The notes: generated from the sequence alone by a model not told the origin. Counted from the stretch's first letter, positions 1,466 to 11,675 are shown. The stretch: 11,999 nt of DNA from Candidatus Omnitrophota bacterium (GCA_021108075.1 JAIORP010000176.1:1-11999); one strand, 5' to 3'. A program made the numbers and translations.

Positions 1466-1492
1466 TTTACAAAAATAGCGATAAATTATAAT
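1466..1492 (+). promoter_or_regulatory. Candidate sigma-70/sigma-A promoter for the CII-like/NfeD/flotillin operon (TTTACA-15-TATAAT)
   Basis: -35 TTTACA at 1466-1471, 15-nt spacer, perfect -10 TATAAT at 1487-1492. The predicted TSS is ~1499, about 26 nt upstream of the first possible start codon (GTG 1525). Confidence 0.45.
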
Positions 1493-1524
1493 TTACAGGT
1501 ATGCTTTAAAATTTTATCCTTAAA

Positions 1525-2127
1525 GTGAACGTTCAGCTTGCCGAAAGTTTTATGACCGGATTTTCGCAAGCAGTTGCTTTGTTTGGCCAAACAAAGCCGA
1601 AAAAGGAGGGGGGAGGCGCAACCTTGGATGAATCTTATCAAGTACTCAAAAAGGCTATTGATGCGGTTGGTATCAAGAAAGTCGCGGTTGAATTAGGACT
1701 ATCTACTTCTTTATTATACAAGTGGTGCCAACGTTCGGAAGACATTAATGAATATCAATCCGCCAGCGGAGCAGCTAATCCTTTAGACCGTCTTCAGAAA
1801 TTGTATGAATTGACGAATGACTCGGATATTATCAATTGGCTGTGCCAGAATGCCGATGGGTTTTTTGTCCCAAATCCTACGATTGATAAGAAGAAGCGGG
1901 GACTACACGTGGTTGAGAATATGCAGGGAATGATTCGTGAATTCTCAGAAACTCTTGATACGATTATAGATTGCTACAATAATGGGAATCGTATTGATTC
2001 GGATGAATCGAAACGGATCCGGGCGAAATGGGAAGAGTTAAAACAATTTGGAGAGTTTTTTGTCAGCGCTTGTGAAAGCGGCAAGTTTGATAAGAAGCCG
2101 TCTAAAGGAAAAACAAAAAGGGGGTAA
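1525..2127 (+). CDS. HTH-containing putative regulatory protein (Cro/CII-like helix-turn-helix, 'VAVELGLSTSLLYKWCQ'); possibly phage CII (186 CII / P4 cII-type) family; start codon uncertain
   Basis: Open frame of 200 codons followed 3 nt later by the next gene. The motif (A/V)xxLG(L/V)SxSx(L/V)(Y/S)xW is a classic Cro/CI/CII-type HTH. The downstream segment 'LDRLQKLYELTNDSDIINWLCQNADGFFVPNP' resembles, from my memory of phage 186 CII, the region just after the HTH in CII/CP76-type proteins. Start options are GTG 1525 (no SD), ATG 1552 (weak SD) or in-frame TTG 1624 preceded by a very strong SD (aaggaggggggagg at 1603-1616, 7-nt spacer). Confidence 0.6.
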   Translation: MNVQLAESFMTGFSQAVALFGQTKPKKEGGGATLDESYQVLKKAIDAVGIKKVAVELGLSTSLLYKWCQRSEDINEYQSASGAANPLDRLQKLYELTNDSDIINWLCQNADGFFVPNPTIDKKKRGLHVVENMQGMIREFSETLDTIIDCYNNGNRIDSDESKRIRAKWEELKQFGEFFVSACESGKFDKKPSKGKTKRG

Positions 2128-2130
2128 AAA

Positions 2131-2715
2131 ATGGATATATTTGCAAATGCTACTCCTTTGGAGAACGCGTTTTGGGTTTGTGCTTTGGGAGGAACATTTT
2201 TTTTCATGATTCGGTTTGTTCTGATGATGGTCTCGGGCGCCGGAGGTGAAGCCGAAGGATTGGATGGCGCAGAAGCTGATGGTGGTGGTTTTGATACGGA
2301 CGCAACCTTTCAATTTATCTCCATCCATACGCTGACGGCTTTTGTGATGATGTTCGGCTGGGCCGGGTTAACGGCTTACCGGCAGTTTCTGTTGTCCGCT
2401 GGTTTGTCTATTTTTATCGCTTTTTTGACAGGCGGACTTTTTATGTATTTAACGGCGTTTTTATTAAAGGCGTTAAAAGGATTAAGCAGCCGTGGTGGGA
2501 CTTTTAATATCAGAGATTCCATTGGGTTGAGAGCGAATGTGTATCAGATGATTCCGGCTGACGGACGGGGACGCATCCATATTGCCCGCGAGGGAACGAA
2601 TACCGTTGAATTGGATGCGGTCTCGCATGACAAGAATGAAATTTCTTCTTTTAAGACGGTTGAAATTATGGAAGTGGTTGATGGAAAAACAGTTTCTGTC
2701 AAAATAATCTCGTAA
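2131..2715 (+). CDS. NfeD/YqiJ-family inner-membrane protein (N-terminal TM helices and Gly/acidic loop, C-terminal OB-fold beta-barrel), 194 aa
   Basis: ATG preceded by SD aaaggggg with 6-nt spacing; the SD lies inside the 3' end of the upstream gene, suggesting translational coupling. Hydrophobic helices (FWVCALGGTFFFMIRFVLMMV; ISIHTLTAFVMMFGWAGLTAY; LLSAGLSIFIAFLTGGLFMYLTAFLL) flank a Gly/acidic stretch (GAGGEAEGLDGAEADGGGFDTDA) typical of YqiJ-type proteins. The C-terminal ~75 aa is a soluble beta-rich domain like the NfeD OB-fold. It sits immediately upstream of a flotillin gene, the canonical NfeD-SPFH pairing. Confidence 0.8.
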   Translation: MDIFANATPLENAFWVCALGGTFFFMIRFVLMMVSGAGGEAEGLDGAEADGGGFDTDATFQFISIHTLTAFVMMFGWAGLTAYRQFLLSAGLSIFIAFLTGGLFMYLTAFLLKALKGLSSRGGTFNIRDSIGLRANVYQMIPADGRGRIHIAREGTNTVELDAVSHDKNEISSFKTVEIMEVVDGKTVSVKIIS

Positions 2716-2754
2716 GTTTGTTTTAAATGTCACTATACTAAAAGGAGAACTGAT

Positions 2755-4167
2755 ATGAACTTATTGGTCGTTAGTGTGTTGGTTGGGGCGTTCTTTTTTG
2801 TCTCCATTTTAATGTTTTTTGCCAGCTGCTATAAGCGTTGCGCGTCAAACCAGATCATAGCGATTTACGGAAAGGTCGGAAAAGAACAATCAGTAAAATG
2901 TTTTCATGGCGGGGGTGCGTTTATTATCCCTCTTATTCAAGACGCGAAATTTCTTGATTTGACACCGATGACGATTAGTATCCCGCTCAAAGGGGCGCTG
3001 TCGTTTCAGAATATCCGTATTAATGTGCCGAGCACGTTTACGATTGCGATTGATACGTCTAAGGAAGCGATGAACAATGCCGCTGTCCGTTTGCTGGGAT
3101 TAACAAGTGAGGAGGTTGAACGCATGGCCTCAGAGATAATATTTGGCCAATTGCGTTTAACGGTCGCGTCATTAAACATTGAGGAAATCAATCAGGACCG
3201 TGAGCGGTTCCTTCAGGCAATCCGTAATAATATTGAGCCGGAATTGAGAAAAATCGGTTTAACCCTTATTAACGTTAATATCACGGATATCACGGATGAA
3301 TCTGATTATATTGAGAGTATCGGAAAGAAGGCCGCATCCACTGCTGTTAATCAAGCCAAAATTGATGTGGCTGAACAAGAAAAAAAGGGGGATGTCGGAG
3401 CATCTGCCGCGGAAAGGGAAAGGCGTATCCAGGTAGCCTCATATAATGCCGAAGCCGTTGAAGGGGAAAACACGTCTAAGGCCAAAGTTGCCAGTTACGA
3501 TGCTGACTTGGCTGAAAAAGAAGCGGAAGCCGGACGCCGCGGGGAAGTCGCTGAACAGAACGCAGTCGCCGAAATTCAGAAAGCCAAGGCCCTGGCCGAA
3601 ATAAAGCGTTTGGAAGCTGAGCAGATTGTTCCGAAAGAAATTGATAAGCGAAAAGTTGAGATTCAGGCTGACGCGGATGCCGAGAAACTTCGTCGGGAAG
3701 CCAAGGGTAAGGCGGACGCGATCGTTTCTGTTAAAACCGCGCAAGCCGAAGGTATTCAGAAGGTGCTGGACGCTAAAGCCGAAGGTTATCATCGTCTGGT
3801 CAATTCTTGCGGGGATAATGCGAAAGACGCGGCTACTATGTTGCTTGTTGAAAAGTTAGAAGAAATCATTAAGTTGCAGGTTGAAGCGATCCGTAACATC
3901 AAAATTGACAAAGTGGTCGTTTGGGATAGTGGTCATGGGGAAAAAGGCAGTTCAACAGCTAATTTTATGAGCAGTTTGGTCAAATCATTACCGGCCTTAC
4001 ATGATGTGTCTGCCATGGCCGGGGTGGAATTGCCGGATTATTTAGGTAAAATTGTGGATGATGCAAAAATCAAAGGGGTCAAAGAAACCCGTACGCGAAC
4101 ATCAGCCCCGGCGAAACCACAGAAAGAAGGTGACGCCTCATCCCAGGATAAAGGGCCATCTAAGTAG
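2755..4167 (+). CDS. floT: Flotillin-like SPFH/band-7 protein (FloT / YqiK family), 470 aa
   Basis: Perfect SD aaaggaga at 2741-2748, 6 nt before the ATG. The N-terminal TM/hairpin (LLVVSVLVGAFFFVSILMFFA) is followed by an SPFH domain (IIAIYGKVG...GGGAFIIPLIQDAKFLDLTPMTISIPLKGALSFQNIRINVPSTFTIAI...) and a long Ala/Glu-rich coiled-coil region (AEQEKKG...AEKEAEAGRRGEVAEQNAVAEIQKAKALAEIKRLEAEQ...). The C-terminal flotillin signature 'KVVVWDSGHGEKGSSTANFMSSLVKSLPALHDVSAMAGVELPDYLGKI' resembles the B. subtilis FloT / E. coli YqiK C-termini. Confidence 0.9.
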   Translation: MNLLVVSVLVGAFFFVSILMFFASCYKRCASNQIIAIYGKVGKEQSVKCFHGGGAFIIPLIQDAKFLDLTPMTISIPLKGALSFQNIRINVPSTFTIAIDTSKEAMNNAAVRLLGLTSEEVERMASEIIFGQLRLTVASLNIEEINQDRERFLQAIRNNIEPELRKIGLTLINVNITDITDESDYIESIGKKAASTAVNQAKIDVAEQEKKGDVGASAAERERRIQVASYNAEAVEGENTSKAKVASYDADLAEKEAEAGRRGEVAEQNAVAEIQKAKALAEIKRLEAEQIVPKEIDKRKVEIQADADAEKLRREAKGKADAIVSVKTAQAEGIQKVLDAKAEGYHRLVNSCGDNAKDAATMLLVEKLEEIIKLQVEAIRNIKIDKVVVWDSGHGEKGSSTANFMSSLVKSLPALHDVSAMAGVELPDYLGKIVDDAKIKGVKETRTRTSAPAKPQKEGDASSQDKGPSK

Positions 4168-4199
4168 TTTTTATTGTTAAAGTTTGATTTGAGAGTAAA

Positions 4200-4239
4200 T
4201 GAAAAGCAGCTGTTTTTGATAAAAAATAGCTGCTTTTCA
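4200..4239. terminator. Long, nearly perfect A/T-rich inverted repeat (about 18 bp per arm, loop 'gata') 33 nt after the flotillin stop; probable bidirectional terminator, or a protein-binding palindrome
   Basis: aaaagcagctgttttt-gata-aaaaatagctgctttt: 16 consecutive pairs with one G-U, extended by flanking g-c and t-a pairs. The 3' arm ends in uuuu. The stem is A/U-rich, so stability is moderate. Confidence 0.5.
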
Positions 4240-4342
4240 AGGTTATTTTAGCGAAGATAATTTTCTAGGAATTATTAAATAAATTAATATATAATTTAAT
4301 TTAAAACTATATTTTCTAATAGTTTGCGGAAAAATAGTTCTC

Positions 4343-4371
4343 TTGACATTATTTATATAAAATGCTATATA
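4343..4371 (+). promoter_or_regulatory. Candidate promoter for the giant gene (TTGACA-17-TATATA)
   Basis: Perfect -35 TTGACA at 4343-4348, 17-nt spacer, -10 TATATA at 4366-4371. This implies a ~280-nt 5' leader before ATG 4659. Other weaker A/T-rich -10-like sequences lie closer to the gene, so the TSS is not certain. Confidence 0.4.
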
Positions 4372-4415
4372 TTTATAGGATGAAAGCGTTTCCAAGATTT
4401 GGCGTTTTTCAATTT

Positions 4416-4431
4416 ATTGAAATCATTCAAT
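4416..4431. promoter_or_regulatory. Inverted repeat ATTGAA-atca-TTCAAT embedded in direct repeats of TTCAATTTA (4408-4416, 4426-4434); candidate operator in the leader of the giant gene
   Basis: Seen directly: 6-bp perfect arms with a 4-bp spacer, overlapping two copies of TTCAATTTA spaced 18 bp apart and a third partial copy (acaatttta at 4435-4443). Confidence 0.3.
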
Positions 4432-4658
4432 TTACAATTTTATTTTCATTATTATGATTAAGTCAAAAATCACCAATTTCGACCTATCTATATCGTCGGT
4501 CTATTCATCTACTCCCCGCCAAAGAAAAACATCGTATCATATTAAATACCAACAATTTACATTAATTCGTTTTTCCATTATTTTTTATTCCGTTACGGTT
4601 TTATACATATATATTATTAATAGATTCATCCTTTTTTAAAACAGGGGGACAAAAGGTC

Positions 4659-4781
4659 ATGAGTATTAACACTTTTAAAGCAAATTCAAATTTACCTCAT
4701 CGCGTATTATCTGTTTTTGTTAGCTTGATTTTCATTTGCAATTTTGTGATGCCTCTATCAATGGTTCAGGCGCAAAGTGCT
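4659..4781 (+). other. Predicted Sec signal peptide of the giant protein (~38-41 aa, extended n-region)
   Basis: MSINTFKANSNLPHR (basic n-region), VLSVFVSLIFICNFVMPLSMV (h-region), then VQA|QSA|G with small residues at -1/-3. Confidence 0.6.
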
Positions 4782-7700
4782 GGCACGGTTCTAGGTTTAC
4801 CAGAACCAGGCAAAATGGTCGAAATGACTGACGCCTATGCTGCACCAGCTGTCATTGGATTGGCCATTCACGCCGATGATCCTTTGGAATTTGATTTTAT
4901 TTTGGACATGGGCGAAGAAACACTTGATGATGCTAATATCAGGTCCGTTTCTGAAAAACTCATTAAATATTTTCTTGCCGGGCTCACAGTTCCCCCTGAA
5001 GATCTGTGGGTCAACTTATCGCCATATGAACAAGGCAAGATCATCCCTAACGCGTTGGGTGATACGGAAATGGGCCGTGATTTGCTCGCGCAGGATTATG
5101 TCCTTAAGCAAATTTCCGCGTCCATCATGCACCCGGAAAAAGAAGTTGGTGAGCAGTTTTGGAACAAGATCTACGAAAAGGCATTAGAAATTTATGGTAC
5201 GATCGATATTCCGACCAACACTTTCAACAAAATTTGGGTTATTCCGGACGAAGCTTTTGTCTACGAGTCAAATGGTGTTGCTTATGTTGTTAATAGCCAT
5301 TTGAAAGTCATGCTTGAAGAAGACTATCTTGTCATGAAAGAAAACATGGACAGCGATGAGTTTGGAGCTCAGGACATTGAGGATGCAGATGTGGAAAGAA
5401 TTAACAAGCTCTCGACGGACATTTATCGGGAAGTTTTACTGCCCGTTATTGAGAAAGAAGTCAATGAAGGCAAACTTTTCGCTAACCTTCGTCAAATTTA
5501 TAACTCCATGATCCTCGCCTCATGGTATAAGGAAGCGTTGAGGGAAAGCATTTTAACGCGGGTGTATGCCAATAAGAATTTAACGTCAGGGATCAATGTG
5601 AGTGATGTCCTTGTTAGCAACAAGATTTATGAGCAGTATGTTTCTTCTTTCGAGAAAGGCGCGTACAACATCCTAAAGAAAGAATTTGACCCGAAGACAA
5701 AAGGGATAATCACCCGACGCTATTTTTCCGGCGGTTTTTACGGCGGAGGAATTGAGCGTGAAGTCGGCAACAAGATGGCCCGCAGTTCTTCGACGAACTT
5801 AGTCAGCGAATTTACAACAAACCAGTCAGACGTGAAAGTTACATTCAGGGATAGTTTGGCGGCAACAAATTTATCGCCCCGTAACAAGGCTAAATTGTTT
5901 TCCGCGATGACGGACTTGGCCAAGCAACAACCCGGTGTTTTTACGAACCAAAAACGCTTGTCGAATGCCTTGCAACAACGGTTGCCAGCCATTAATTTTA
6001 CTCCGGAAGTTATGACAGCGATTAACGATGTTGCCAAAACACAGTTGACGAAAAAGATCAGCAAAGATTTTACTCCGCAACTGGAGCGTAACATTGAAGT
6101 ATCCTCGTTACCGCAGCCTCAAAAAATTGAAATACGGCAAACTGTTTCAGCGATCGCTAAGTCCGTTCCTTTTGCTGTTGCGAGCAGTGAGTCTGTTTTG
6201 GCTGATGAACTCATTAAACGTGGGGTCTCGCCGCAAACCGTTAACCAGGCCCGTACCCAGGGTGTTTTAGCGCGAGTGGTCACTGACTACAAGGCTGTCT
6301 CAAATAAAATTAATCAGGCTAATTTGGCGAGTTTACCGAAACAACGTCAGACGCAGGTTATTAATTTTATGGATAAGTTAGAAGATAAAAGAGAAGATAA
6401 AAGGCTCATGCGCGTTAACACAAAATTAAGTGAGTCTCAAAGAACAGGCACCGACGGAGCGATGTTGATGGCGATGGCTCCTGCGGCATATGCTGATGAT
6501 TACAGCGTTAATGAAATCGTCGGGGCTTTAGAGCAATCGCGACAATCACCACGGACCCTGGAGACACGATTGGTTCAATCAGGGTATACTCCGCAACGTG
6601 CCGCTGTTGTTGTTGAGGCCGCGCAAAGTTTTTACAACAGCAATGAACAGGCCATTAGAACGGCAAAAACACCGGAAGATTTAATTGTTTTAGCCGTTAA
6701 TGATAATCGTCTGGACTTTCGGAACATTGCACCGATGATCATGAATCCGAGTTTTGTCTCCTCCGCCCAGGTGTTGCCGGATTATTCAAACAAAGCGGCC
6801 ATCATGAACGCGGGTTATCAGCAAACAATGGGTAATGCCATGAGTTTAGATGACGCTTCCATAAAGCAAAGTCTTATGGATACGGGCATGCCTGAATCAA
6901 CTGCGTCAAAGAAGGTGAAAGACTGGAACACGTTTAAAACACGTCAGCCCGTCGAAGTTCAAAACCGGCTTTCTTCCATGACCCTTCCTGAAGTGTTGAC
7001 GATTGCACCAACGTCAGCGACTCCGGTTGTGTTAGACGTTTTTTCAGCCACGTCTTCAACAGGTTCAACGTCTGAAATCGGCAGCATGTCCAGACAGATA
7101 TCACGTGATGCTTTCGCGCATACGTTTACAATGTCACAGCAAAGCATTGAAAGCGGATTAATGCTGGCAACAGATAGCGCGGACACGGCACAATCGACAG
7201 CACAGCTATTTAAAGACGTTATATCCCGTCCAGGGGCGGAAAGGGCCTTTGTCGGCGCGGATACCATGCCGAAGTTTATCAGCAACATGATTTCAGAAGG
7301 AGTGATTAAACCTAATGAAGGGAAACAATTAAAACCAATGCTGGAAGCAAATTTTCAATCTTTTTCTGCCGCTCAAGCAGACACACAACCAATGCTTACC
7401 ACCGGTGTCAGTTTGGAACGAAAAGCCATTGACACCATCAAGGCCAATATTTCTTCTCCGACTGTGATCGCCAAAACAATTACTCCTGTTGTTGGTCGAG
7501 AAAAAGCCATTGAAATCTCAAATAAGATCGCTGCGAATGAATCAACCGTAAGGGCGATCGCATCATTACCGGATCTTGTTACGGCTATTCCAGAGACAGC
7601 GCCGTTACTTAAATCAGACGCAACAATTGCCCTGGCGATACAAAGTAAGGATGTGCATATCGCGGATATTGCCGCATATCAAACACGTCAAAAAGGATCA

Positions 7701-10700
7701 GCCGACATCTTCAGGCAAGTTGACAGCAAGTCTTATATTAGTTCTGCGTTGAGATCCGGATCATCTTCACTCTCATCCAGCCAAAAAGAACAAGTGGCTA
7801 ATTTTGTTGGTAAGCAGTTAAAAGACAACCCGGAATTAAAGCAACGGATTGTCAACCAGGGTATGGACGCATTAACGGAACTGGCCGCGCAACAACCAAT
7901 GGTCGCGCAATTGTTTAATGCCGACGTGACATCAAGACTCAATCAAGCTGCCCGCGGCAACAGAAGCTCCGAACAACAAGTTGCGATCGAACAAGTTGGC
8001 ATGGGAACGCTGACCCAATTATCAAGTGCGACAGCCGCGGATATCAGACCGATGGTCAGTAATATCAGCCAAAGGGTCGATCCGAAAAATGCGCCGTCTA
8101 GAACAAAGGAGATGATGAACGATGTTTCAGCCTTTTTGTCGTCACCAGAGGTTAAAACGGAAATGGCGGCCTTATCTCAAGGACGTTCTTCCGTTAGCAA
8201 TGTTTTGGATAAAGCCCCATCACCGCGTGTTAAAGAAACGATGGCATTGATTATGAATGATCCAGATATGTCATCAACCCTGGCTTCCCGTTCGGGGGTG
8301 CTACCACAAACAGTTGTCCGGGATGTCGTTTCTTTTTCAAATAAACAAGCAGCCAGTATAGTCAATACTGGTGATGTAAAGATATTCCAAAAAGCTTTAG
8401 CGAATGCGAATGTTCCTGTTCGTGATATTACAACATTAACGAACGTGATGGACCGCGTTGTGCTAAGCGGTACGCAAATATCACAGATGAGTGACCTGAT
8501 GAATGTTGCATCAACAGATACAGAAAGAATGGCAATTGTATCCTTGATGACGGATACAAAGGCCATCTCGTCATTAAGTTCAACAGCATCGAATTTGTCA
8601 AGTCGGATCGGGTTGCGTGATATCAATGCTCCGTCAAAGATCAACTTTTATGCCACGCAGGCCTTGAAGGATTTAGATGAAGACACGATGACGGAAGTTT
8701 TGCAAAATGTTGTTGAGACTCCGCGACAGGCAAGACAAATTGCCCGAACGGTTGTTGATATGCGGCAACGCGGTCGAATTACGGACAACACGTTAAGCTT
8801 ATCTGATGTTGTTTCCAACGCGACGTCAACGGCTTCAGCGAAGCAATTGTCGACGTTAGGGGATAAAAAGGTCCAGGTCGCGCTTTATCAAGCCGGACAG
8901 CTACAAAGCAACAGTACCTATACACCGCAACTGTTTGACGCGGCTCAGCGAACAGCCTTGCAGGTCGCGGTGAATATGGACCAGAATCAAGTGGAACAAA
9001 TGGTCACGCAAATAGCAAAGACGACCCTGCCGAACGTGAGCACTACTGATATTAAAAGGGCATCACAATCTCTCAGCCGCACGTTTGAAGGTCCTGAGTT
9101 TAAAGCCGCGTTATCCCGGGGAAAAGTTTCTTCCTTAAAGGATGTCGCCCAATATGCGTCTGACGGCGATAAAATTAATCTGGCGATGTTTTCTCAACCT
9201 GTGATAGTCAATGCGTTTGTTAATAAGGCAACCTCTACCGGCTCGTCAGACTATGTTAGCTTGGGCCGAATGGAGCTCGGAAGTTTTCAACAATTGCAAC
9301 AGATGAGTGGTCGTGATGTTCGGAATTTCATGATCGATAAAGGGGTTGATGCAACAACCGCACGTCAAATGGAAAAATCATTCTCGCCAGCTATCTTCAA
9401 GGGCGTCAGCAATGTTGGTGAGTTAACATCTAAAGTTGCTAACTTACCCGATATGCCGGAACAACAAAAACGTGACATCGTTCAAATCGCTCAGACAGCT
9501 GTTATTGGCATTGAAAACAAGAGTTTACCGGTGTCCGCTTCACAGCAATCAGCGATTGTTTCAAATACGTACCAGAAGGCCGTGACAGGCATCAGCCTTA
9601 ACCTTGATAAGCCTGAAATCATTCAAGCGAACTTGGTTGCTTCAGGTCTCAGCCCAATGCAGGCCATTAACACCGTTAATACCTTGAGTGATTTTGCCCA
9701 GTCACAAGCTGGTCAGGCGGCATTATCAACAGCTAAATCACCCATGGATTTTGTTATGCAGGCACCGCAGGATTTTCGGAAAGATTTAACGCCGATTGCC
9801 GATACCAAATTTACGGCATTGATGGCTAATGAAGCCCCGACATTAACAGCCCCGCAAATGGCTTCCGTCCGCACGTCTTACAAAACGGCTGGAAAGACAT
9901 TATCCTCGATATCCAGCACGAATGTTTCGAACTTCAAAGGTCAATTGGGTCGATCCGGTGCATCAAAGGCAGACATCGATATGACTGCCGATGCTGTTGT
10001 GGCGATCAACAGAAGCATGACTGCCATTGAACTGGATACCGCGACACCACAAACGTATATCGCTAAAGCAAGAACACCGCAGGAAGCCGTTGCGATGGTG
10101 AATGTCTTCAACAATAGTAAAGCGGTTGTCAGTTTGGCGTCTCAAAACATGAACATCTCTGCCGGTGAAGCCACTCAAATTTCCATAGCAAACCGTCAAT
10201 TGACATCAAACGCTTTTCAAGGTTTGGTTATGGATGGGGCGGCAAATATTCGTTCAAACGCGATCGGGGCTTTAAAAGCTTCGGGACAGTCCAGAGAGAT
10301 CGGGCGTGTTTCGGACGCGTTGAGAAAAGTGGAAGCCAGTCCGCAGGCAATGGCTCAATTTGTGCAATCAGGTTCTATTTCCAGATTACCTGAAATCGCT
10401 ATGGCGAATAATTTGGATGTGAATATTAATGACTTCAGCCCATTGATGGACCCTGATATCATGTCTAACCTCAGTTCCTCATTTGATCGCGCGACGTCAA
10501 ACCAGGCTTCATTGGCGCGTGAGATTATTGTTAATGACACCATTCAAGCGATGCCTAAACTGAAATCGAATGAAGTGCGCGACGTTGTCGTCAAGATTTT
10601 CGGAGAAAGCAACGCGGGTCAAGTTATGGCCAATTATGACAACTTTAAAAACACACCCGGTATTGGCCGAAAGATCCGGTCCGGCGCTTCGATGAATGAA

Positions 10701-11675
10701 GTTTTAGACTTTGTCGCCGAATCTTCACCTTCAGTCGTTCCTCAGATAGCCGTGATGTTGAACAGCCCGCAATTCGTTGAGCTAGCGGCAAAGACGTCAG
10801 GAAATATTTCTCCCGGCGTCGCGCGCAATACATTGGTTATGGAAAACGCGAGCGCGACAGCGACGTTTCAGGCATCTATCACAGAAAGAAATATGCCTAT
10901 TGTGAGCGCTGCGTTGACAGAAAACGGTTACAGCCGCAGCAATGTCAATGAGTTTAGATCAACGATGACGAACATTATGGATAGAGAAGGTGGTGCTGTT
11001 AATATCAGCAGCCCGGCAGACATTCTCCAATATGCCCGGACACCGCAGGAAGTACAGTCCTTAATGCCGATGACCAATTCTAAAGTTATCTCTTCTTTAG
11101 GTCGCAGGGCTATTGTGAGAAAAGCATCAATCGTGCAGAACATTGAATTTGAAACAGCAAGCCGTATTTCCATCACGAGTGAAACGGAGTTGTCTCGTCC
11201 GATCACTAAAGTTTACGGGGCGTCAGCCGCTCAAGAGAGTATTAATGCTTTAAGTCGTGTCAAGGCGAACCCGGCTAAAATGGCCCGTTTGCGTAGCATC
11301 ACAAATACGGCTGAATTAATGAACTTGGCTGATACTGATCAAGATGCTGTTGCTCTGGCACGTTTTGGGAATACAGCTGTTATGAATGAGTTCCTAAAAC
11401 CGATCATGAATGATCAGATTCGATTAGCCCGACAAAATAAAAAGGCAGCGACAGGGAAGAAAGGTGGTATCGACCTGAACCCGGTCTTACTGGATATGGA
11501 AATTCAACGCGATGGATCAGGTGTTCCATTACCTGTTAACCAGCAAATCCTGGATGATATTTTGATTGATGGTTTTTCACCTATTATCAATAATATTATT
11601 CCTTTAGGAAACGCGACAGGTATTCTGCATATTTCTTCACAGGTCAAAGGTGACTTGAGCCAGAAGCATAACTAG
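4659..11675 (+). CDS. Giant secreted protein of unknown function (2,338 aa): signal peptide, ~330-aa N-terminal globular domain, ~1,900-aa Cys-free S/T/A/Q/N/M-rich region with degenerate helical repeats
   Basis: Single uninterrupted 7,017-nt ORF with SD aggggga 9 nt upstream of the ATG. The N-terminus has a basic n-region (KANSNLPHR), a hydrophobic core (VLSVFVSLIFICNFVMPLSMV) and an AXA-like site (VQA/QSA). No Cys residues occur after the signal peptide. The motif (S/T)P(Q/E) recurs at helix starts (FTPEV, FTPQL, VSPQT, YTPQR, KTPED, YTPQL, ETPRQ, ARTPQE x2). There is a clear internal duplication: aa ~1804-1850 'ARTPQEAVAMVNVFNNSKAVVSLASQNMNISAGEATQISIANRQLTS' versus aa ~2126-2170 'ARTPQEVQSLMPMTNSKVISSLGRRAIVRKASIVQNIEFETASRISITS'. 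It is terminated by a strong intrinsic terminator. No LPXTG, SLH, choline-binding, autotransporter beta-barrel or RTX motifs were seen. Confidence 0.85.
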   Translation: MSINTFKANSNLPHRVLSVFVSLIFICNFVMPLSMVQAQSAGTVLGLPEPGKMVEMTDAYAAPAVIGLAIHADDPLEFDFILDMGEETLDDANIRSVSEKLIKYFLAGLTVPPEDLWVNLSPYEQGKIIPNALGDTEMGRDLLAQDYVLKQISASIMHPEKEVGEQFWNKIYEKALEIYGTIDIPTNTFNKIWVIPDEAFVYESNGVAYVVNSHLKVMLEEDYLVMKENMDSDEFGAQDIEDADVERINKLSTDIYREVLLPVIEKEVNEGKLFANLRQIYNSMILASWYKEALRESILTRVYANKNLTSGINVSDVLVSNKIYEQYVSSFEKGAYNILKKEFDPKTKGIITRRYFSGGFYGGGIEREVGNKMARSSSTNLVSEFTTNQSDVKVTFRDSLAATNLSPRNKAKLFSAMTDLAKQQPGVFTNQKRLSNALQQRLPAINFTPEVMTAINDVAKTQLTKKISKDFTPQLERNIEVSSLPQPQKIEIRQTVSAIAKSVPFAVASSESVLADELIKRGVSPQTVNQARTQGVLARVVTDYKAVSNKINQANLASLPKQRQTQVINFMDKLEDKREDKRLMRVNTKLSESQRTGTDGAMLMAMAPAAYADDYSVNEIVGALEQSRQSPRTLETRLVQSGYTPQRAAVVVEAAQSFYNSNEQAIRTAKTPEDLIVLAVNDNRLDFRNIAPMIMNPSFVSSAQVLPDYSNKAAIMNAGYQQTMGNAMSLDDASIKQSLMDTGMPESTASKKVKDWNTFKTRQPVEVQNRLSSMTLPEVLTIAPTSATPVVLDVFSATSSTGSTSEIGSMSRQISRDAFAHTFTMSQQSIESGLMLATDSADTAQSTAQLFKDVISRPGAERAFVGADTMPKFISNMISEGVIKPNEGKQLKPMLEANFQSFSAAQADTQPMLTTGVSLERKAIDTIKANISSPTVIAKTITPVVGREKAIEISNKIAANESTVRAIASLPDLVTAIPETAPLLKSDATIALAIQSKDVHIADIAAYQTRQKGSADIFRQVDSKSYISSALRSGSSSLSSSQKEQVANFVGKQLKDNPELKQRIVNQGMDALTELAAQQPMVAQLFNADVTSRLNQAARGNRSSEQQVAIEQVGMGTLTQLSSATAADIRPMVSNISQRVDPKNAPSRTKEMMNDVSAFLSSPEVKTEMAALSQGRSSVSNVLDKAPSPRVKETMALIMNDPDMSSTLASRSGVLPQTVVRDVVSFSNKQAASIVNTGDVKIFQKALANANVPVRDITTLTNVMDRVVLSGTQISQMSDLMNVASTDTERMAIVSLMTDTKAISSLSSTASNLSSRIGLRDINAPSKINFYATQALKDLDEDTMTEVLQNVVETPRQARQIARTVVDMRQRGRITDNTLSLSDVVSNATSTASAKQLSTLGDKKVQVALYQAGQLQSNSTYTPQLFDAAQRTALQVAVNMDQNQVEQMVTQIAKTTLPNVSTTDIKRASQSLSRTFEGPEFKAALSRGKVSSLKDVAQYASDGDKINLAMFSQPVIVNAFVNKATSTGSSDYVSLGRMELGSFQQLQQMSGRDVRNFMIDKGVDATTARQMEKSFSPAIFKGVSNVGELTSKVANLPDMPEQQKRDIVQIAQTAVIGIENKSLPVSASQQSAIVSNTYQKAVTGISLNLDKPEIIQANLVASGLSPMQAINTVNTLSDFAQSQAGQAALSTAKSPMDFVMQAPQDFRKDLTPIADTKFTALMANEAPTLTAPQMASVRTSYKTAGKTLSSISSTNVSNFKGQLGRSGASKADIDMTADAVVAINRSMTAIELDTATPQTYIAKARTPQEAVAMVNVFNNSKAVVSLASQNMNISAGEATQISIANRQLTSNAFQGLVMDGAANIRSNAIGALKASGQSREIGRVSDALRKVEASPQAMAQFVQSGSISRLPEIAMANNLDVNINDFSPLMDPDIMSNLSSSFDRATSNQASLAREIIVNDTIQAMPKLKSNEVRDVVVKIFGESNAGQVMANYDNFKNTPGIGRKIRSGASMNEVLDFVAESSPSVVPQIAVMLNSPQFVELAAKTSGNISPGVARNTLVMENASATATFQASITERNMPIVSAALTENGYSRSNVNEFRSTMTNIMDREGGAVNISSPADILQYARTPQEVQSLMPMTNSKVISSLGRRAIVRKASIVQNIEFETASRISITSETELSRPITKVYGASAAQESINALSRVKANPAKMARLRSITNTAELMNLADTDQDAVALARFGNTAVMNEFLKPIMNDQIRLARQNKKAATGKKGGIDLNPVLLDMEIQRDGSGVPLPVNQQILDDILIDGFSPIINNIIPLGNATGILHISSQVKGDLSQKHN

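Follow-up and report, generated by a model that had tools for sequence, protein, structure and literature searches.

Operons in which a short NfeD-type membrane protein is encoded directly 5' of a flotillin-like SPFH protein are already known, among them yuaF-floT of Bacillus subtilis and yqiJ-yqiK of Escherichia coli. Apart from sigma-W in Bacillus, little is known of how bacteria regulate their genes for flotillins, stomatins and NfeD proteins, and what the encoded scaffolds do is still under debate. The B. subtilis yuaFGI operon is sigma-W-dependent, and SPFH2 operons were surveyed by Hinderhofer et al. 2009 (PMC2636767). Transcriptional activators of the CII type are likewise known from phages. 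Here we analyzed a stretch of 11,999 nucleotides from a Candidatus Omnitrophota bacterium (GCA_021108075.1 JAIORP010000176.1:1-11999), hereafter the window, which carries a three-gene operon encoding a CII/CP76-family helix-turn-helix (HTH) protein (gene 1), a predicted short NfeD-type membrane protein (gene 2) and a flotillin-like SPFH protein (gene 3). Neither yuaF-floT nor yqiJ-yqiK is headed by a transcription factor, as the operon described here probably is. From comparison of sequences, we consider it probable that this is a chromosomal NfeD-flotillin operon headed by its own cellular CP76-family activator, which would control its own gene and SPFH operons. What is new is a candidate conserved operator, and with it a predicted SPFH regulon, in the Planctomycetes-Verrucomicrobia-Chlamydiae (PVC) group.

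One of the closest known counterparts of the gene 1 protein is CII of phage 186, a protein of 169 aa. At the promoter pE, its half-sites have their centres at -38 and -58. The CII site annotated in the record of phage 186 (23435-23462) reads ATGTTTG-N13-CAAACAT, a 7-13-7 inverted repeat. A TAAAGT hexamer lies 21 nt past the proximal arm, and the annotated pE ends about where the start site would fall. The activator 186 CII is short-lived in wild-type cells, with a half-life of 2.1 min; loss of FtsH prolongs this to 25.9 min, and RseP is a second protease that cleaves the protein (PMC7708051). The CII of phage lambda is unrelated to it in sequence (PMC7708051). In the lambda circuit, an unstable activator of the same name is tied to SPFH proteins through FtsH (HflB) and HflK/HflC, and in the operon described here a CII-type factor is genetically linked to SPFH and NfeD genes. 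The two differ in that the SPFH proteins here are of the flotillin and stomatin types, not HflK/C, and in that the locus contains no FtsH gene. No CII-like or CP76 protein linked to SPFH or NfeD was found in full-text literature searches, in the Hinderhofer survey (PMC2636767) or in a 2026 study of SPFH proteins in Pseudomonas.

An earlier note on this DNA, made from the sequence alone, had read gene 1 as a CII/Cro-type HTH protein with a following segment resembling phage 186 CII, and both peptides that it quoted (VAVELGLSTSLLYKWCQ and LYELTNDSDIINWLCQNADGFFVP) are found in the translated open reading frames (ORFs). Profile comparisons uphold the family assignment. The gene 1 protein scored 23.7-24.4 bits (E=3e-5) against Pfam Phage_CP76 (PF06892), which has a gathering cut-off of 26, and when members of the gene 1 family were scanned singly, 37 of 38 matched PF06892 at E<=1e-3, the best of them at 5.5e-11. 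PHROG 101, 'CII-like transcriptional activator', was matched at 2.7e-9, and weak matches were obtained with YmfL in NCBIfam and with HTH_28, HTH_23 and HTH_Tnp_1 in Pfam. A search of 5.8 billion proteins returned 39 relatives of 150-170 aa, most of them already annotated with PF06892. Aligned directly with phage 186 CII by hhalign, the HTH and the 'LYELTNDS / LLTDLTEDS' segment ('LTxDs') were paired (E=0.041), and so the resemblance noted earlier was recovered, if weakly.

The AlphaFold2 (AF2) model of gene 1 (pLDDT 77) consists of an N-terminal HTH, a long helical hairpin in the C-terminal part (residues 96-151) and a disordered basic tail, which is variable in the family alignment. Helices 17-24 and 28-34 of the model fall in the conserved segment 'LGLSxSLvYKW', which hhalign pairs with the HTH of 186 CII. 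The two proteins are thus alike in family-level sequence, in the N-terminal position of the HTH and in size (~160 aa here). Unlike 186 CII, the gene 1 family has an invariant NPLDR motif (residues 52-56) and two cysteines, C74 and C150 in the numbering of the 167-aa protein, that are invariant or nearly so; NPLDR is no feature of the 186 CII alignment. The cysteines and NPLDR could be a redox or ligand-sensing site.

A product of ~200 aa had been assigned to gene 1, corresponding to the maximal ORF with its GTG at 1525. The start codon is most likely the TTG at 1624 instead, because homologues of 150-170 aa align only from residue ~34-36 of the 200-aa ORF, because a GGAGG lies 7 nt 5' of the TTG, and because transcription is predicted to start at ~1527, which would exclude the GTG. 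The orthologue in locus L087 (loci are cited by their numbers in our surveys) starts at the equivalent TTG.

The segment at 1466-1492 had been taken for the promoter of the operon. As a promoter it would read TTTACA-15 nt-TATAAT, a spacer too short for the sigma-70 scan. On sequence grounds a conserved inverted repeat is the better interpretation, and the likely core promoter follows directly (Table 1). With a predicted start site at ~1527, the arms of the repeat are centred at predicted positions -58 and -38. Within the window alone the repeat is not statistically remarkable, and its weight comes from conservation across species. Aligned upstream regions gave the consensus (A/G)TTAYA(A/G)-N13-TTRTAAT, that is, ATTACAA-N13-TTGTAAT. 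When the exact pattern TTAYA-N15-TRTAA was searched over 84 loci (1.09 Mb), 26 sites were found, 23 of which lie within 260 nt 5' of gene 1 homologues, in regions that make up 2% of the sequence searched (binomial P=2e-36). Allowing one mismatch, the repeat is present in 31 of the 84 loci, and some other loci carry variant arms, ATTGCAA or TTGCAAT. The AT-rich arms are retained in genomes of 61-67% GC, where the spacers are GC-rich. Additionally, when 28 motif sites from different species were compared, 24 had a TAnnnT hexamer beginning 22-23 nt past the proximal arm, and the repeat precedes gene 1 at predicted -38/-58 in many phyla.

The geometry of this candidate operator is that of the phage 186 CII site at pE: 7-bp inverted arms, a 13-bp spacer, half-sites 20 bp apart, a repeat that touches the -35 position and a -10-like hexamer 21-23 nt past the proximal arm. 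The half-site itself differs (ATTACAA here, ATGTTTG in phage 186), as does the placement, since the element here precedes the gene of the regulator itself and membrane-scaffold genes, not a lysogeny operon.

The repeat is also found before SPFH genes that do not adjoin gene 1. Exact sites outside the gene 1 upstream regions lie ~60 nt before the gene 2 start codon of a gene 2-gene 3 operon separated from gene 1 (L042) and ~40 nt before a Band_7 gene (Pfam 4.4e-28) located 4.7 kb from gene 1 (L074). Among loci collected by way of gene 2, two without gene 1 nearby (L105 and L107) carry the full element and a -10 directly before gene 2, and in a third (L167) the element precedes gene 1. A further exact site (L076, 14292-15432 region) lies 5.8 kb from the gene 1 homologue, ~50 nt before a gene that encodes a DUF4126 membrane protein of 362 aa; this gene may be an additional member of the predicted regulon.

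Two other features of the upstream region were observed. In a Pontiella sub-clade (L015, L017, L019, L027 and L029) CTRTAAA replaces ATTAYAA as the distal arm, and the proximal arm retains TTRYAAT-GG. Since the half-site is almost a palindrome, the arms appear re-oriented in this sub-clade. In the window, a perfect 22-nt palindrome (GCTTTGTTTGG/CCAAACAAAGC) at 1576-1597 sits just 5' of the gene 1 Shine-Dalgarno (SD) sequence, within a predicted 5' leader of ~97 nt. The leader is long in L087 as well and short in other lineages. It folds no better than shuffled sequences (z=-0.53) and has no Rfam match.

Autoregulatory HTH proteins are often repressors, and the same repeat could serve gene 1 as an autorepressor or repressor that keeps the operon off until a signal arrives. 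One base, the first of the -35, is shared with the proximal arm, and the -35 (TTTACA/TTAACA) and -10 (TATCCT/TATACT) of the Omnitrophota could work unaided. The arms are, however, centred at ~-38/-58, where they precede the core promoter and do not cover it, which is the arrangement of the activator 186 CII. In Kiritimatiellota, Verrucomicrobiota and Planctomycetota, moreover, the -35 is GC-rich and unlike TTGACA (GGGGCT, GGCTTG), as is typical of activator-dependent promoters. We therefore regard repression as an unlikely mode of action for gene 1.

Gene 1 relatives were found in at least 589 species in a scan of one genome per species, mostly Omnitrophota, Planctomycetota, Verrucomicrobiota (including metagenome-assembled genomes, MAGs, of Akkermansia), Kiritimatiellota and Lentisphaerota. 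An exhaustive profile search at E<=1e-3 placed 1084 clusters (50% identity) in the family. Unlike 186 CII, gene 1 is chromosomal and PVC-wide: tblastn searches with gene 1 of 50,697 phage and 72,556 plasmid records were negative, and IMG/VR held only four relatives, all distant (28-39% identity).

To describe the gene neighbourhood, the 80 best gene 1 genome loci were surveyed using stop-to-stop ORFs and profile searches. SPFH or NfeD genes are found beside gene 1 in 15 of these 80, in several architectures and from two SPFH subfamilies. The co-directional flotillin-type trio occurs in Omnitrophota and Kiritimatiellales, and two MAGs, one from Planctomycetaceae and one from Opitutae (L014 and L081), show divergent arrangements. 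In L042 the gene 2-gene 3 pair lies 2.7 kb from gene 1 on the opposite strand. A short NfeD (PF01957) together with a stomatin-type Band_7/Band_7_C protein is found 3' of gene 1 in L009 and L088 and 5' of it in L069, and in L010 a stomatin-type SPFH gene stands alone beside gene 1. SPFH profile matches in four more loci (L052, L060, L066 and L068), to ORFs of ~660 aa located ~2 kb downstream, were dropped as probable coiled-coil false positives because the L052 ORF has no Pfam match. In loci lacking SPFH genes the flanking genes belong to 137 Pfam families, with four occurrences at most for any one family. The sole gene 1 neighbour to recur across lineages is an SPFH gene, which usually has an NfeD partner.

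Some neighbours recur within single clades. In Kiritimatiellales the gene 1 homologue is divergent from tig-clpP-clpX (trigger factor, ClpP and ClpX), which lie on the minus strand ~0.1-4 kb upstream (L012, L015, L017, L019, L025, L027, L029, L031, L032, L039 and L061). Within 5 kb of gene 1 in L091-L093, which belong to another lineage, there are genes for an NfeD1b/Peptidase_S49 protease, for LemA and for a histidine kinase. These protease and chaperone neighbours could reflect a proteostasis theme or merely clade synteny. As general partners of gene 1, tig-clpP-clpX and the mevalonate diphosphate decarboxylase gene of Kiritimatiellales were set aside, their linkage being clade-specific synteny only.

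Several observations weigh against a dedicated SPFH activator. For roughly 80% of the gene 1 homologues, no SPFH gene lies closer than 8 kb. Conversely, the gene 2-gene 3 pair is retained in almost all of 68 gene 2-anchored metagenome loci, and gene 1 is present in only 1 of the 48 with room upstream. In Kiritimatiellales the gene 2-gene 3 pair comes and goes beside a fixed gene 1, being present or absent between it and the mevalonate diphosphate decarboxylase gene. The repeat, which abuts a -35 that is already reasonable in the Omnitrophota, could be bound by a different factor. As for gene 1 itself, the window protein falls 1.6 bits short of the PF06892 cut-off, its direct hhalign alignment with 186 CII is weak, and fold searches with its model were uninformative.

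The scarcity of each partner beside the other is also what would be expected if the adjacency were fortuitous, with gene 1 being a PVC regulator of general or unrelated function, or what is left of a domesticated prophage. Yet SPFH/NfeD genes are the only neighbours to recur across phyla, in independent architectures and with two SPFH subfamilies, and the shared cis element stands before unlinked NfeD-flotillin and Band_7 genes. Where gene 1 and gene 2 adjoin they are closely spaced or overlapping, and neither an integrase nor other phage genes were seen in any gene 1 context examined. A chance association is accordingly improbable. The presence of gene 1 in 1 of 48 loci does mean that the SPFH link, though real, is facultative and lineage-restricted. 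The earlier note had, as a fallback, proposed an unusual regulator dedicated to a flotillin operon; the recurrent linkage and the shared cis element uphold and strengthen that reading.

The earlier note had preferred to see in these genes a counterpart of the gop-beta-cII region of satellite phage P4 (Rst_gop_beta_cll), that is, an anti-phage or abortive-infection module in which a flotillin toxin and an NfeD antidote would be governed by a CII-like switch. The two have three genes each, one of them for a protein named cII. The evidence in favour is indirect: gene 1 has a phage-type regulator fold, and the variable presence of gene 2-gene 3 beside a fixed gene 1 in Kiritimatiellales would suit a defence cassette. 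The homology was not borne out for any of the proteins. The PADLOC gop, beta and cll models readily found the P4 proteins used as positive controls (4.8e-70, 8.2e-188 and 3.2e-113, respectively), and at E<=1 the three proteins of the operon matched no PADLOC model. P4 Beta belongs to PF14350 (Pfam 4.3e-56), for which these proteins gave no match, P4 cII has no CP76 or HTH match, and hhalign of the gene 1 family against P4 cII gave no alignment of note (E=0.35 over 16 columns). The earlier note had taken the order and sizes of the P4 genes to match those here (~200 aa, ~190 aa and ~50 kDa); in the P4 record (NC_001609) gop (133 aa) and beta (355 aa) share one strand, and cII (264 aa) is convergent on the other, unlike the three co-directional genes here.

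The surroundings of the operon speak against a mobile or defensive origin as well. Horizontal acquisition had been suggested partly from a low-GC Gram-positive look of the promoter, SD and terminator, but the host is a Candidatus Omnitrophica MAG (locus tags K8S27_13610/13615 on this contig), not a Gram-positive. The window forms the initial 12 kb of a metagenome contig of 16.8 kb (ENA ERZ26872899 NODE_565). GC content is flat (0.41-0.47) through the cassette and its flanks, the order NUDIX-gene 1-gene 2-gene 3-giant ORF is retained in a 79%-identical relative, and the gene 1 family is absent from the phage and plasmid records searched. In place of a defence island, housekeeping genes (NUDIX, tig-clpP-clpX, mevalonate decarboxylase) are found around the locus and its relatives. 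No phage, plasmid, defence or compositional signal was found around the locus. A defence role of this kind is thus exceedingly improbable, and on these comparisons we reject the assignment of the locus to the anti-phage gop-beta-cII systems.

Genes 2 and 3 were identified by different means. Gene 2 had no Pfam, NCBIfam or PHROG match at E<=1, including the Pfam NfeD (PF01957) and YqiJ models. Its AF2 model (pLDDT 79.6) has three transmembrane helices, a disordered acidic loop at residues 38-55, which is the Gly/Asp/Glu loop pointed out previously, and a C-terminal five-strand OB-like barrel at residues 134-192. The barrel structure matches NfeD OB domains, with YuaF of B. subtilis as the best match, and YuaF was also the sole match when the gene 2 family profile was compared with PDB sequences (E=0.01). 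By hhalign, the barrel aligned with a PF01957-positive NfeD (E=0.0056), and nothing detectable was obtained with E. coli YqiJ (E=0.57 over 15 columns). Gene 2 is therefore modelled as a short NfeD of the YuaF type, assigned by structure only, which reverses the suggestion of a YqiJ rather than a YuaF type and sets the operon apart from yqiJ-yqiK.

The reading of gene 3 as SPFH/flotillin was correct: its Band_7 domain (residues 37-210) is matched in Pfam at E=4.7e-28. It is related to YqiK of E. coli, the operon partner of YqiJ (24% identity over 330 aa, E=5e-15, spanning the SPFH and Ala/Glu-rich regions). It differs from FloT, scoring 142 bits against the NCBIfam FloT model, far under the 700-bit equivalog cut-off. 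In L087, the orthologue combines a Band_7 domain with a weak PF15975 Flot match. Judged from its sequence, gene 3 encodes a flotillin-like SPFH protein and no FloT orthologue.

The features of the operon are collected in Table 1. Its overall anatomy agrees with what had been described: three co-directional genes with gaps of 3 nt (genes 1 and 2) and 39 nt (genes 2 and 3), a G-rich gene 2 SD inside gene 1, and a terminator-like hairpin in which an 18-bp stem is followed by a T run.

Table 1. Features of the gene 1-gene 2-gene 3 operon, numbered from the first nucleotide of the window
Feature	Coordinates	Strand	Details
7-13-7 inverted repeat, candidate operator	1466-1492	+	TTTACAA-N13-TTATAAT; arms 1466-1472 and 1486-1492
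Predicted core promoter	1492-1520	+	-35 TTTACA 1492-1497, 17-nt spacer, -10 TATCCT 1515-1520; promoter scan
Gene 1, maximal ORF	1525-2127	+	ORF call
Gene 1, CII/CP76-family HTH protein	1624-2127	+	167 aa; most likely TTG start; SD GGAGG 1612-1616
SD of gene 2	2117-2124	+	G-rich; within gene 1
Gene 2, predicted short NfeD-type membrane protein	2131-2715	+	194 aa; ORF call, AF2 model
Gene 3, flotillin-like SPFH protein	2755-4167	+	470 aa; ORF call; N-terminal membrane anchor, Band_7, long Ala/Glu-rich coiled-coil
Terminator-like hairpin, operon end	4200-4239	+	18 pairs, 4-nt loop, T-rich tail; terminator scan

Elsewhere in the window, a NUDIX hydrolase gene (989-1396) lies directly 5' of gene 1, as it does in the 79%-identical relative, and NUDIX paralogues cluster around this position in twos or threes (L006, 704-1740; L087, 3064-3552 and 5885-6289). 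Beyond the terminator, a giant ORF of 2338 aa (4659-11675, plus strand) has an N-terminal hydrophobic segment and no Pfam match at E<=0.001; at the same position L087 has two ORFs, of 672 and 1648 aa. The giant ORF may encode a lineage-specific surface or secreted protein. The stretches at 1-988 and 4240-4658 are AT-rich (GC ~0.34-0.35) and contain no called gene. The ~930-nt region 5' of the NUDIX gene also lacks gene calls in other contigs that carry it, and the 420-nt region 3' of the terminator contains many promoter-like matches. No Rfam family and no tRNA was found in the window, these AT-rich stretches included.

In the reading that we consider probable, the gene 1 protein would bind the 7-13-7 repeat in oligomeric form, its half-sites being separated by two helical turns (~-38/-58), as phage 186 CII does at pE, and would activate transcription of a single mRNA ending at the hairpin, thereby raising its own synthesis together with that of the NfeD/flotillin pair. 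Where the genes lie apart, it would act on SPFH operons in trans. More speculatively, the regulator might be turned over or sequestered at the membrane by the very complex that it induces, giving a feedback that reports the state of the membrane. SPFH cages associate with FtsH. Taken with the destruction of 186 CII by FtsH and RseP, this suggests that the level of the gene 1 regulator is perhaps set at the membrane, and we infer, by analogy only, that it may be coupled to membrane proteolysis. A broader form of the same idea is that the gene 1 family could be the equivalent, in cells, of the CII protein with which phages sense the choice between lysis and lysogeny: a self-activating CII-type regulator with its abundance set at the membrane, either by proteolysis of the FtsH/RseP type under the control of the SPFH/NfeD cage or through direct capture by the cytoplasmic NfeD barrel. 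The cell would thereby measure the state of its membrane or of its proteostasis and match the amount of flotillin and stomatin scaffolds to it. We consider this last proposal rather unlikely.

The occurrence of a regulator and repeat before flotillin-type genes across PVC bacteria points to an undescribed control circuit for membrane scaffolds, as far as can be judged from genomes. For the CP76 'phage' regulators, it means a large chromosomal branch that has retained the operator geometry of 186 CII. The negative result with P4 keeps the operon from being mislabelled as a defence system. If the proteolytic feedback is true, the observation of CII, FtsH and HflKC in phage would be linked to a cellular circuit, and if the gene 1 family is indeed a cellular counterpart of the phage sensor, there would be an evolutionary reason for the phage CII readout to pass via FtsH and the SPFH proteins HflK/C. 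A dedicated regulator with a recognisable candidate operator would constitute a regulon testable in cultivable PVC bacteria, such as the Pontiellaceae isolates and relatives of Akkermansia, and the conditions that switch the regulator on would indicate what the scaffolds are for.

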